DNA of 64,000 nt. It comes from a virus. The first letter of the stretch is position 1, and every line of letters begins with the position of its first letter. Positions 41,536 to 48,592 of the stretch are shown here, piece after piece. Made by a program: the position numbers and the translations under genes. Under the pieces are notes generated by a model, which saw only the letters and a program-made list of their open reading frames with translations, was not told the origin of the DNA and searched no databases. The stretch lies in the IMG/VR virus record IMGVR_UViG_3300028920_000032, positions 94,330-158,329 of that record. The stretch is one strand, 5' to 3'.

Positions 41536-41992
41536 CTCTATCTCCCTTCTAGTTCGACATCGCCGAACATAATCGCCGCCTTTTTATCACCACTTTCTTT
41601 TTTTTCACTTTTTGTTTCAACATTCTTATTATGTTTAAGCCAACAATTGTGACATACAAATGTACTTCCTAAAAAATAACCTTTTGTAAATTCTTCTTTA
41701 GCTCCACATAATCCACAAGTTATAAAAGTTGGAATAGGATTAGAATTTGTCATATATTAACACCTCCTAGTAAATTATAAAAGCTTGTCGATTATATTAT
41801 CTAAGATCATCTAAATATTGCTTTCTTTGATGCCATGGTAAACTGAGATATTCTTTCTTAAACTTATAAGCTTCTTGCTTAACAACGTCTGGATTTTCTT
41901 CAATTACTTTAGCATATCGATTAGCAATATACTTTCTTATAACTTTTGAAGCTTTCTTATTCATATATTCTCCTTCCAATTATATGATCAAA

Positions 41993-42063
41993 TATGTCTT
42001 ACAGGATTCGAACCTGTGACTCCAGCCCAATCACCGGCGCTCTAACCGCTAAACCAAAGACAT
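41993..42063 (-). tRNA. tRNA-like gene with aberrant 6-nt anticodon loop (undetermined or pseudo)
   Basis: ATGTCTT/AAGACAT acceptor, intact T arm ACAGG-TTCGAAT-CCTGT, arm CCGGT-GATTGG-GCTGG. Confidence 0.6.
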
Positions 42064-42131
42064 AACCCAATCTAAATGCGCGACAAAGATTGTTTCGCCA
42101 TCAAGCAGTGCGCATTGCTTGTTATAGGCTA

Positions 42132-46649: not shown

Positions 46650-47158
46650 TTCTACTCTTCACTCTCTTTAATCTCTTTAATTACTACCTTTCTGAAATAA
46701 AAAGTTAGCTATTAAAATCGAAATAATAAATACTACCATTTTTATAAATATGCTTACTTCTTTTGTTCTAAGTTCAGAATATGGTTTCCAGAATACCCAG
46801 ACGGCTTCAGTATATATTGAAGATTTACCAAATGATAATACAAATTCTATTATAGTAATCCATAATGCACAAGTTATATAACCAGCAAGTACAAGTGTTA
46901 AAAAAATTATTATTTTTGATGATGTACTCATATCTCTTTTAAGCTACTAAACATCTTTTTAAACTTTCTTTTAGATTTAATTTCTTTCACAATAATTTCA
47001 CCTATTTGGATGCTTTTATAAAAACAGTAGAATATTGTTAATATAATTGGACTGCAACCAGTTAATATAAAACTACTACTCTTTGCAAGAATACAAAATA
47101 AATAAATTATAATCTGTAACAATATAACAAACAATAACATATTATATTCCTTTCTAAT

Positions 47159-47197
47159 TGGGCGCCCTGGGGTTTGAACCCAGCAAACACTACTTTA
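47159..47197 (-). pseudogene. Orphan 3' half of an interrupted tRNA
   Basis: TAAAGTAGTGTTTG-CTGGG-TTCAAAC-CCCAG-GGCGCCC-A. Confidence 0.7.
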
Positions 47198-47200
47198 ATA

Positions 47201-47287
47201 TAGGGGAGGTGGGATTTGAACCCACGAAATCCTTTCGGCCTTCCATTTATAAGATGGATGCTACTAACCAGACTGAGCTACTCCCCT
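47201..47287 (-). tRNA. tRNA-Ile(TAT) with long variable arm
   Basis: AGGGGAG/CTCCCCT, TCCAT-CTTATAA-ATGGA, variable arm containing CC-GAAA-GG. Confidence 0.8.
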
Positions 47288-47758
47288 ATGTTTTCTGCCT
47301 TTAAATCTATATTTCTCTGTTTGTTGATGACAATTAAGACATAATGCCTCGAGGTTATCTCTATCGTTATTTTTTTTATTATTGTCTTTATGATGTATCT
47401 CTAAATATATAGGCTTACCAAGCCATTCAGAATTGCCACAATTGTTGCATTTACCTTTTTGTTCTTCTTTAACCTTTCTTTTTATTTGACTATGAGACAT
47501 AAGTTCATATTTATTTGAATCATAGATCATTTGTCTTGCTCTTTTTTGTGATTCATTGCCTTTTCTCCCTGCTGAAGCGGGCCAGCCTCCGGTATAAGTA
47601 GTCCCACTAAATGGTTTCCCTTTCAACTTTTTACTTACTTTTTCATTTATTTCTTTACGCTTAGCCTTAGTACTAAACCCTCTTGCACATTTAGATGAAC
47701 AAAATCTACCTGACCCATAAGAGCCATCATGCTCCTTATTACAGTTTTCACATTTCAT
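47264..47758 (-). CDS. HNH homing endonuclease with N-terminal Zn finger
   Basis: CENC...GSYGSGRFCS.KC; CNNC...LEIHHKD...NN...NL..LC.NCH. Confidence 0.9.
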   Translation of the reverse strand: MKCENCNKEHDGSYGSGRFCSSKCARGFSTKAKRKEINEKVSKKLKGKPFSGTTYTGGWPASAGRKGNESQKRARQMIYDSNKYELMSHSQIKRKVKEEQKGKCNNCGNSEWLGKPIYLEIHHKDNNKKNNDRDNLEALCLNCHQQTEKYRFKGRKHRGVAQSG

Positions 47759-47819
47759 ATTCGAACCTCCAAGTGTATATAATATTATCTTACACCTATA
47801 AGTTCGAATCTTTCATTTT

Positions 47820-47850
47820 GAAGCTGCTTCACCAATTTGCATAGACGCCT
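47820..47850 (-). pseudogene. Orphan 5' half of the interrupted tRNA
   Basis: AGGCGTC-TA-TGCAAATTGGTGAAGCA-G-CTTC; acceptor strand pairs with GGCGCCC at 47160-47166. Confidence 0.65.
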
Positions 47851-47854
47851 AAAA

Positions 47855-48087
47855 AATTATTATTCCAGTAGCCAGGATTCTGTTTTATCCTATCATCTAT
47901 CTCAACATTAAATGCTGGTCTTGCGACTGCTGCCTACCCGATCATTATAGAACTGCTCACCTTCTAGATCTTATTTGGCATTGCACCCTCAGTGGTTCAA
48001 ACGAATAAAAATCCTCCCACTTTAAAAGCAGTGGTGTCCTGAGCTTCCTCTATACTTAAAGTACAGCGATAGGTCAGAATAATAATT
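47855..48087 (-). ncRNA. rnpB: Minimal type-A RNase P RNA (catalytic domain only)
   Basis: P1 AATTATTATTC/GAATAATAATT, P2 CCTATCG/TGATAGG, P3 CTGTAC/GTATAG, GAGGAAGCTCAGGA with ACAGAATCCTGGCT giving P4 with bulged U, P5 CACC/GGTG, P15 GCC/GGC with L15 AAATAA/GGGTA, P16 GATC/GATC, P17 TAGAA/TTCTA, AGATAGATGA. Confidence 0.88.
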
Positions 48088-48389
48088 AAAGTGCAGGTAA
48101 TATGTAATTCAGGCTTCATTGCTATAGCTCCACCCAAAATTACTACCTGCACTTGGTAATCTAGCGGGGTAATTGCTAGATTTATAAATAAAGGTTTTTG
48201 TAAAACCAATACATTCTAAATTATGCAATATTGTTTCCTTCTCTTAGCCAACTATCTTCTTGCATATCGCCTAGAGAATCTCACTTCTCTAACCGTATTC
48301 TAGCTTTATCTGTCAAAAATCAAACTTCTTCCAATATTCTTCATCTGCCATGTTTTTCATTATATATAACAAACGAAGCTTTTTCCCAT

Positions 48390-48415
48390 AAAAAAAGCCC
48401 TCTGTATAGAGGGCT
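48390..48415 (-). terminator. Intrinsic terminator upstream of the rnpB/tRNA block
   Basis: AGCCCTCT-ATAC-AGAGGGCT followed by a T-run. Confidence 0.8.
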
Positions 48416-48592
48416 ATTATAATCATAAATACTGGTACCTCTACAACATCAATCTGCCTGTTCTTGCTTCTACACCATTAATTTTATATAAATTAAATGA
48501 TGGGGCTATGGGATTATGTTTACAGAGTGACCATCTAGTCATTTCTATTATTCTCCTTATTCTCATTTATCTTTAGTATATATGCAAAAAAT

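Follow-up and report, generated by a model that had tools for sequence, protein, structure and literature searches.

A 233-nucleotide (nt) RNA encoded by a large phage is likely to be a working ribonuclease P (RNase P) RNA that has no specificity domain. Its gene lies on the minus strand of the virus record IMGVR_UViG_3300028920_000032 of IMG/VR, which is linear, 158,329 bp long and about 70% complete. We analysed record bases 94330-158329, a stretch of 64,000 nt called the window here, and coordinates are those of the window unless another source is named. Sequence evidence supports the assignment of this RNA, hereafter the mini RNA, to RNase P RNAs of bacterial type A descent, cut down to the catalytic domain (C-domain). 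Only two ribozymes are universal, and RNase P RNA, which is one of them, has been regarded as a cellular or organellar gene. We found no report of an RNase P RNA gene in a virus in the full-text literature searched, most subscription journals being outside it. Homology, structure, conservation and gene context form the basis of our reading, and from these we infer catalysis, a protein partner, self-release from the transcript and expression.

The identification begins with RF00010, the Rfam model of bacterial class A RNase P RNA. Searched against an 851-nt region (47600-48450), it aligned to 48085..47853 on the minus strand with 68.9 bits (E 1.1e-20), which is below its gathering score of 100 bits, the curated score for class A, and this counts against the assignment. 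The alignment nevertheless spanned model positions 1-367 of 367 and was significant end to end, and a search of the whole record returned the same RNA with E 4.7e-22. An original prediction made from the letters of the window had placed the gene at 47855-48087, within 2 nt of the aligned interval, as a bacterial type A RNA without the specificity domain (S-domain). It had anticipated a covariance-model match with that domain deleted, and this is what the class A model gave, end to end and in agreement with the family covariation described below. A scan of the window at Rfam gathering thresholds reported tRNAs alone and missed the RNase P RNA. Because 68.9 bits lies under the 100-bit cut-off, standard annotation overlooks the mini RNA. 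BLASTN of the mini RNA against 50,697 GenBank phage records gave no match.

Our own family model, R1, scored the phage RNA at 187.3 bits (47851-48091), a circular score because the window RNA was among its 13 seeds, and found it as a single copy in the 158-kb record. Supply of the S-domain in trans by a second RNase P-like RNA was considered and rejected, as there was no second R1 copy in the record. Another candidate, a Ro60-linked RNA at 14343-14666, was also rejected as an RNase P RNA, with no Rfam RNase P match at E up to 10 and none with R1. The 535-aa open reading frame (ORF) beside it (12460-14067) matched a PHROG family annotated as 'RNA-binding protein' (phrog_850).

The gene and its elements are as follows, RNA position n being window coordinate 48086 - n.

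47853-48085, minus strand: mini RNase P RNA gene, whole, 233 nt, from the RF00010 alignment
48077-48085, minus strand: P1 5' strand UUAUUAUUC, read from sequence, paired with 47857-47865
48068-48073, minus strand: P2 5' strand CCUAUC, paired with GAUAGG at 47889-47894
48050-48066, minus strand: P3 hairpin CUGUAC-UUUAA-GUAUAG, shorter than the P3 of cellular type A RNAs
48036-48050, minus strand: conserved region CR-I, GAGGAAGCUCAGGAC (RF00010 consensus GAGGAAAGUCCGGGC), holding the P4 5' strand at 48045-48037
48033-48036, minus strand: P5 5' strand CACC, paired with GGUG at 47984-47987
48027-48031, minus strand: P6 pseudoknot 5' strand CUGCU, paired with the P17 loop
47991-48021, minus strand: S-domain replacement, 31 nt, with outer stem AGUGG/CCACU and an inner hairpin
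47981-47984, minus strand: J5/15 GCAA, including the counterpart of E. coli A248
47931-47980, minus strand: P15-P16-P17 arm, with P15 UGCC/GGCA, P16 GAUC/GAUC and P17 UAGAA/UUCUA
47953-47957, minus strand: P6 pseudoknot 3' strand AGCAG, within the P17 loop
47903-47927, minus strand: two small hairpins at the P18 position, GUC-GCAA-GAC and CAGCAU-UUA-AUGUUG, read from sequence
47895-47902, minus strand: J18/2 AGAUAGAU (RF00010 consensus AGAUGAAU)
47869-47883, minus strand: conserved region CR-V, ACAGAAUCCUGGCUA, holding the P4 3' strand at 47877-47870, from the RF00010 alignment
47857-47865, minus strand: P1 3' strand GAAUAAUAA, from sequence and family covariation

The phage RNA thus contains P1-P6, P15-P17, CR-I, CR-V, the bulged U of P4, the GCAA of J5/15, the GGU of L15, and J18/2. 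All the C-domain helices that had been predicted could be read from the sequence, the P18-like helix proving to be two small hairpins. P4 (AGC-U-CAGGA/UCCUGGCU) is formed by CR-I and CR-V and has its bulged U at 48042; in the RF00010 alignment CR-V is seen as AACAGAAUCCUGGCUAC and the J18/2 stretch as AGAUAGAUG. The pseudoknots P4 and P6 are not scored by RF00010 and were read from the sequence. For P6, which had been offered as a possible CUGCU/AGCAG pairing, the phage RNA is ambiguous in that AGCAG occurs twice, in the P17 loop and after P15. The partners in homologues (J5/7 strand against P17 loop) are UUGCU/AGCAA, UUACG/CGUAA, CUGUU/AACAG, GGGCU/AGCCC and GAACAAC/GUUGUUC. This covariation with the P17 loop shows that the P6 partner is the copy at 47957-47953, not the copy after P15; pairing of P6 to the P17 loop is the class A arrangement. 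The internal loop L15 reads GGGUA (CGGGUA in the RF00010 alignment), with its GGU at 47938-47936. In E. coli, A248, the residue represented in J5/15, stacks on the first base pair of the tRNA (PMC11143913). The P3 helix covaries, and its length differs between homologues. At the P18 site, where the RF00010 alignment has about 22 nt, the 3-bp hairpin GUC-GCAA-GAC carries a GNRA-type loop, while P8, its docking site in class A RNAs, is absent. Most family members are without any P18; in L146, L148 and L019 there is a comparable pair of hairpins, of which the first has a GNRA loop.

About 140 model positions of RF00010, the S-domain, are deleted in the phage RNA and are filled by about 41 nt. The specificity-domain helices P7-P14 are missing from it, as is any CR-II or CR-III sequence. 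The hairpin AGTGG/CCACT that had been proposed to take the place of the S-domain sits at this deletion, and its layout in the window is AGUGG / GA / GGAU-UUUU-AUUC / GUUUGAA / CCACU (48021-47991). The same four-part order was found in all 73 distinct sequences of the family: a 5-bp outer stem, a 5' GA, an inner hairpin and a 3' single strand G-Y-U-N-N-N-A. The inner hairpin varies in length among the family and is frequently capped by a GNRA loop. With this constant layout, the replacement module is more than a random stub. It may do no more than close the P5/P7 junction, or it may retain a diminished substrate contact.

The family was collected by scanning IMG/VR with a degenerate CR-I pattern, which matched in more than 111 stretches. 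A CR-V-like motif followed 141-404 nt downstream in 30 of these, with P4 visibly covarying, and RF00010 matched 27 of these 30 records, in sizes from 217 nt to full length and in some cases in complete genomes with terminal repeats. Tighter patterns added short forms from viral contigs, genome bins and metagenomes (91 metagenome stretches). A combined DNA pattern requiring GCAANNNCAAATA was too strict and had no matches, and no relatives were found in viral contigs by way of the neighbouring ThyX protein. The covariance model R1 was built from the 13 short-form seeds, with the structure read off the window RNA. It returned 89 matches of at least 88 bits in phage and metagenome contigs and genome bins, 73 of them distinct, which were 189-371 nt long (median 216) and had a GC content of 31-66%. 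Members outside the seed scored 89-191 bits. The closest relative of the phage RNA has 68% identity to it, and at least two of the members come from complete phage genomes that have direct terminal repeats (321,624 and 357,275 bp). Undibacterium and other matches from the genome collection were not accepted as members, being full-size RNase P RNA genes (rnpB) of 345-360 nt with R1 scores of only 24-31 bits.

Covariation was counted over the 73 distinct sequences after P4 and P6 had been entered as pseudoknots. Standard pairs were formed in 92.1% of the alignment cells, compared to 33-41% when the 3' partners were slid by 1-3 columns and 66.6% in column shuffles. The covariation score was 0.594, against 0.07-0.135 for the slid partners, and none of 500 shuffles was as high. 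Altogether 41 of the 54 pairs were altered on both sides, and a set of 25 sequences gave the same picture. By helix, the counts were:

P1: 87% of cells paired, 9 of 9 pairs changed on both sides
P2: 96.7% of cells paired, 6 of 6 pairs changed on both sides
P4: 98.7% of cells paired, 3 of 8 pairs changed on both sides
P5: 100% of cells paired, 1 of 4 pairs changed on both sides
P6: 98.6% of cells paired, 4 of 5 pairs changed on both sides
S-replacement stem: 98.1% of cells paired, 4 of 5 pairs changed on both sides
P16: 96.2% of cells paired, 4 of 4 pairs changed on both sides

Compensatory changes were thus seen in P1-P6, P16/17 and the replacement hairpin. The nested helices are favoured in these counts because the alignment was fitted to the nested helices of the model; P4 and P6 are independent checks because they are absent from R1, and covariation of P4 among homologues was one of the expectations of the original prediction. 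P15 was badly aligned (54% paired) and was therefore used for no inference. In the same alignment 43 positions were at least 95% conserved. On the side of CR-I, P4 and P5 they include GAGGAA, the bulged U (U44), C45, G47-C50 and most of the 5' strand of P4/P5; elsewhere they are two letters of P6, the GCAA of J5/15 (G102 to A105) and the GGU of L15 (G148, G149, U150), and in the 3' part the AG and AU of J18/2 (A184, G185, A190, U191) and the UA of CR-V. These nucleotides have been tied to catalysis, metal binding and recognition of the acceptor end in the RNase P literature (review PMC11143913).

Several other RNAs were seen around the family. A 168-kb complete phage genome with terminal repeats has a 277-nt RNase P RNA of 188 bits (L124:1501-1777), which keeps the full S-domain (P7-P14, CR-II, CR-III) and has a minimal P3 and no P16/P17 or P18. 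L134 and L135 are intermediates with partial S-domains. A 124-nt partial copy (L142:3409-3532, model positions 26-158) adjoins the full copy of L142, and L150, L152 and L153 each have one 111-nt partial match and one weak 184-nt full-length match about 540 nt apart. These extra partial copies could be duplications, split genes or products of decay. A bin of Acidimicrobiia holds a full-size RNase P RNA (301 bits) together with a mini RNA on a 45-kb contig with a tRNA array, and this contig is probably a phage.

The genomic context of the mini RNA is a tRNA array. The 31 tRNA genes of the record are all inside the window, all on the minus strand, at 17.9-52.6 kb, and 19 of them are within 6 kb of the mini RNA. 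The mini RNA had been thought to head this array, and it is instead inside it, with 4 tRNA genes upstream and 27 downstream. Among 25 family loci, 20 had same-strand tRNAs within 6 kb and none had opposite-strand tRNAs. At about 10 of the 25 a tRNA started no more than 30 nt past the 3' end of the RNase P RNA, and at 5 a tRNA ended within about 12 nt of its 5' end. In the window the immediate surroundings of the mini RNA are:

48415-48396, minus strand: strong terminator, upstream of the mini RNA
48086-48395, minus strand: structured stretch of 310 nt between terminator and mini RNA, ending right before P1 in a 14-bp hairpin (about 48155-48090)
47820-47850, minus strand: apparent 5' half of a split tRNA (AGGCGUC-UA-UGCA...), starting 2 nt after the mini RNA
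47758-47264: HNH endonuclease gene, which lies with an intact tRNA-Ile(UAU) in the approximately 620 bp between the tRNA halves
about 47197-47159, minus strand: 3' half of the split tRNA (T-arm and acceptor)

When 47820-47850 was joined in silico to 47140-47203, ARAGORN recognised a tRNA, whose anticodon varied with the placement of the junction. Cleavage by RNase P at the 5' end of this split tRNA would generate the 3' end of the mini RNA. The 310-nt stretch folds well beyond shuffles (z score -3.79); it may represent a leader, a signal for processing or a further small RNA.

None of the 31 phage tRNA genes encodes a 3' CCA. The phage has a tRNA nucleotidyltransferase of the CCA-adding type outside the window (G000:C1:80224-81540; L183:224-1540; PF01743 132 bits; phrog_2244, E 6e-74), and this enzyme and the RNase P RNA would cover two of the activities that maturation of tRNA ends requires. 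The phage tRNAs had been described as atypical, with a maturation that might be independent of T-loop recognition. We found that nearly all of them have canonical GUUCRAnYC T-loops and ordinary Rfam scores, and because they are not visibly atypical, special elbow-independent substrates are not indicated. ARAGORN assigned no identity to one tRNA at 41992-42064 (minus strand; Rfam tRNA 46.6 bits) and gave it a two-letter anticodon, 'tt'; its anticodon loop may be of unusual size. A tmRNA gene with the tag ANETLPMQAAA was seen inside the tRNA array of a relative (L152:6637-7002).

Members of the family are also found in bacterial genomes. Five genomes of Gemmataceae (G034, G035, G038, G051 and G067; loci L161, L171, L159, L287 and L288) carry mini RNAs of 221-242 nt with R1 scores of 115-167 bits, and in four of the five the gene is directly upstream of one to eleven tRNA genes. 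The two loci whose flanks were examined (L161 and L171) are surrounded by ordinary chromosomal genes (4-alpha-glucanotransferase, aldose epimerase, DUF58, PSCyt2/PSD1). None of the five genomes had a full-size RF00010 match, compared to 33 of 38 other Gemmataceae genomes in the same search (200-310 bits). By hand calculation, the chance that all five would fall among the ten genomes without a full-size match is C(10,5)/C(43,5), about 2.6e-4. The gene of the protein subunit, rnpA, is kept in all five (87-101 bits). PIN_5, the model of HARP-type protein-only RNase P, had no match over its cut-off in the five genomes and did match its positive controls in Haloferax, Methanosarcina and Methanocaldococcus. 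Since the mini form stands alone with rnpA, and neither a full-size rnpB nor a protein-only RNase P was found, the architecture can apparently serve as the RNase P of a cell. This suggests that an S-domain-less RNA with ordinary RnpA can be a bacterium's RNase P, and that a bacterial lineage may be living on a half-size RNase P RNA. The genomes are, however, metagenome bins, which may be incomplete and possibly represent a single lineage. Comparison of flanking proteins by tblastn showed no synteny between the mini loci and the full-size rnpB loci, so that the mini form may either have arisen in place or have been brought in. Another Gemmataceae genome (G041) has a second, weak RF00010 match of 182 nt and 33.5 bits (G041:C1:4869928-4870109, inside L282), about 900 nt downstream of its normal rnpB (270 bits), to which R1 is blind.

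A scheme for the function of the mini RNA can be suggested. It would be co-transcribed with the phage tRNA genes and probably excised by the enzymes of tRNA end processing; RNase P cleavage at the 5' end of the following tRNA would give it its 3' end. It would then fold into the P1-P4 core, the P6 pseudoknot and the P15-P17 arm, bind host RnpA, and as a complex with it trim the 5' leaders off the 31 phage pre-tRNAs. The phage tRNAs without an encoded CCA would, after 3' trimming, be completed by the phage CCA-adding enzyme. Neither the record, which is 70% complete, nor any of five relatives, of which two are complete, had a match to RnpA (PF00825), and because no such gene was found, use of the host protein, as originally predicted, is the simplest reading. 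Because the S-domain is absent, the substrate should be recognised through its acceptor stem and leader and through the protein, and not through the tRNA elbow. A lower affinity is expected of such an enzyme. Isolated C-domains, of type A as well as of type B, cleave pre-tRNA in the presence and in the absence of protein, although their binding is weaker (PMC11143913). The weaker binding may be offset by a high local concentration of substrate during infection or by the replacement module.

Besides the sub-threshold score and the nature of the Gemmataceae bins, a few further points weigh against a working phage RNase P. E. coli M1 RNA without residues 94-204 fails to cleave pre-tRNA-Tyr (PMC11143913), which means that loss of the S-domain can cripple some constructs. 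No convincing promoter was found, only one weak sigma-70-like match overlapping the start of the RNA, and the AAGATAAT motif was not enriched (14 found, 13 expected). The portion absent from the incomplete record might hold a phage rnpA. The single-sequence fold of the mini RNA was no stabler than shuffles (z score -0.74); folding energy is therefore uninformative here, and the support for the RNA is the covariance-model match and the covariation.

We weighed other roles for the RNA. It might be a poor enzyme that acts as a sponge, drawing RnpA from the host RNase P RNA and depressing host tRNA maturation during takeover. The C-domain does bear the protein-binding surface, no phage RnpA was found, and the S-domain needed for efficient binding of pre-tRNA is gone (PMC11143913). 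However, a sponge has no need for the bulged U, the A of J5/15, the GGU of L15 or the P6/P16/P17 arm, and these are conserved or covarying in the 73 sequences; moreover, the 31 phage tRNAs themselves require 5' processing, and the same architecture is apparently the only RNase P RNA in five Gemmataceae genomes. We regard a sponge as quite improbable. It is also conceivable that the mini RNA is a specialised enzyme, active on hairpin-like or tRNA-half substrates, on small structured phage RNAs or in its own excision, with the host enzyme left to process the bulk of the tRNAs. In line with this, S-domain-deleted M1 RNA with its protein cleaves pre-4.5S RNA and not pre-tRNA-Tyr (PMC11143913), and in the window the mini RNA abuts a split tRNA and has the structured 310-nt leader (z score -3.79) upstream. 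The constant neighbours of the family, however, are ordinary tRNA genes on the same strand, the tRNAs of the phage look canonical, and the Gemmataceae cases imply general tRNA processing, so a specialised role seems improbable to us. The RNA could finally be a relic: a host rnpB would have been captured, would have lost its S-domain and would now drift with no function. The Rfam score under the cut-off and the partial or duplicated copies in relatives (L142, L150, L152 and L153) would conform to this. A drifting sequence would hardly keep 92% of its pairs among 73 different sequences whose identity falls to 68%, nor show compensatory changes in each helix, 43 nearly invariant core positions and a conserved layout of the replacement hairpin. 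Decay is already contradicted by the covariation, and we give it almost no credence.

A stronger form of our reading is that the S-domain-less RNA is a fully competent, elbow-independent tRNA 5'-maturase which spread with phage tRNA arrays, uses RnpA supplied by the host and displaced the full-size rnpB in at least one lineage of Gemmataceae. We put this forward tentatively, as a possibility that we would not yet favour. If it is true, bacteria can live without the specificity domain, and the virosphere can supply a replacement for a core ribozyme gene.

Compared to known systems, the mini RNA is closest to the bacterial class A RNAs (RF00010), such as E. coli M1 RNA, the product of rnpB, and that of Thermotoga maritima, with which it shares a homologous C-domain that includes the P6 pseudoknot with L17. 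It differs in its size (233 nt instead of about 350-400 nt), in the 31-nt hairpin that stands for P7-P14 and CR-II/CR-III, the binding site of the T-loop, in its short P3 and the reduction of P18 to two tiny hairpins, and in being encoded by a phage within a tRNA array. It descends from class A and probably works like it, although two defining features of the class, the curated score and the S-domain, are lacking. Among archaea, the type T RNAs of Thermoproteaceae (Pyrobaculum) are natural RNase P RNAs of about 200 nt that have lost nearly the whole specificity domain. These are of archaeal descent and work with archaeal proteins, whereas the phage RNA is of the bacterial type. The original prediction had pointed to type T as a parallel; because the type T model (RF02357) found nothing in the phage record at E up to 10, the likeness is convergent and not one of membership. 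The mitochondrial RNase P RNAs of fungi also have a reduced type A scaffold, but much of the periphery of the C-domain is lost as well, and they are not viral. Engineered C-domains and mini-M1 RNAs retain the same parts as the phage RNA; they are laboratory deletions, whereas the phage RNA is a natural and conserved gene with a structured replacement module of its own. RNase P RNAs without P12, P13, P14 and P18 were detected in candidate-phyla bacteria by sub-threshold Infernal searches (PMC8172020). Like the phage RNA, they are natural RNAs with a type A scaffold that has lost peripheral helices, but they keep the core of the S-domain and are not viral. The theta (hepatitis delta virus-like) ribozymes beside tRNA genes of gut phages, proposed to lessen the dependence on host tRNA-processing RNases (PMC10879173), resemble the mini RNA in being phage-encoded ribozymes next to phage tRNAs. 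They are, however, small and self-cleaving and act in cis on 3' trailers, whereas the mini RNA is a homologue of a trans-acting RNase P, and the same paper assigns the 5' processing of tRNAs to cellular RNase P (PMC10879173).

The carrier of the gene appears to be a large tailed phage, as supported by the IMG/VR classification and by PHROG matches to tail, baseplate and split DnaE-type DNA polymerase proteins in the record; these and the tRNA nucleotidyltransferase bear out the phage origin that had been predicted. No match to the terminase families PF03237 and PF17289 was obtained in the record, which is 70% complete. Elsewhere in the record, there is a single ORF of 4,523 aa without a PHROG match (G000:C1:1463-15034, L179, minus strand); several ORFs of 1,000-1,700 aa come after it, and two of these have weak tail or baseplate matches.

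An RNase P RNA encoded by a virus would add to the translation-related functions of large phages, which include tRNAs, CCA-adding enzymes and tmRNA. As the Rfam cut-off misses the mini family, it is under-reported in the annotation of genomes and viromes. With 189-250 nt, these RNAs would be, to our knowledge, the smallest natural RNase P RNAs of the bacterial type. With them, nature has in effect carried out a deletion experiment on the specificity domain in many lineages, which makes it directly testable how much of RNase P is required to recognise tRNA in vivo. Their apparent status as the sole copy in some Gemmataceae, with rnpA kept, suggests that this architecture can support a cell.

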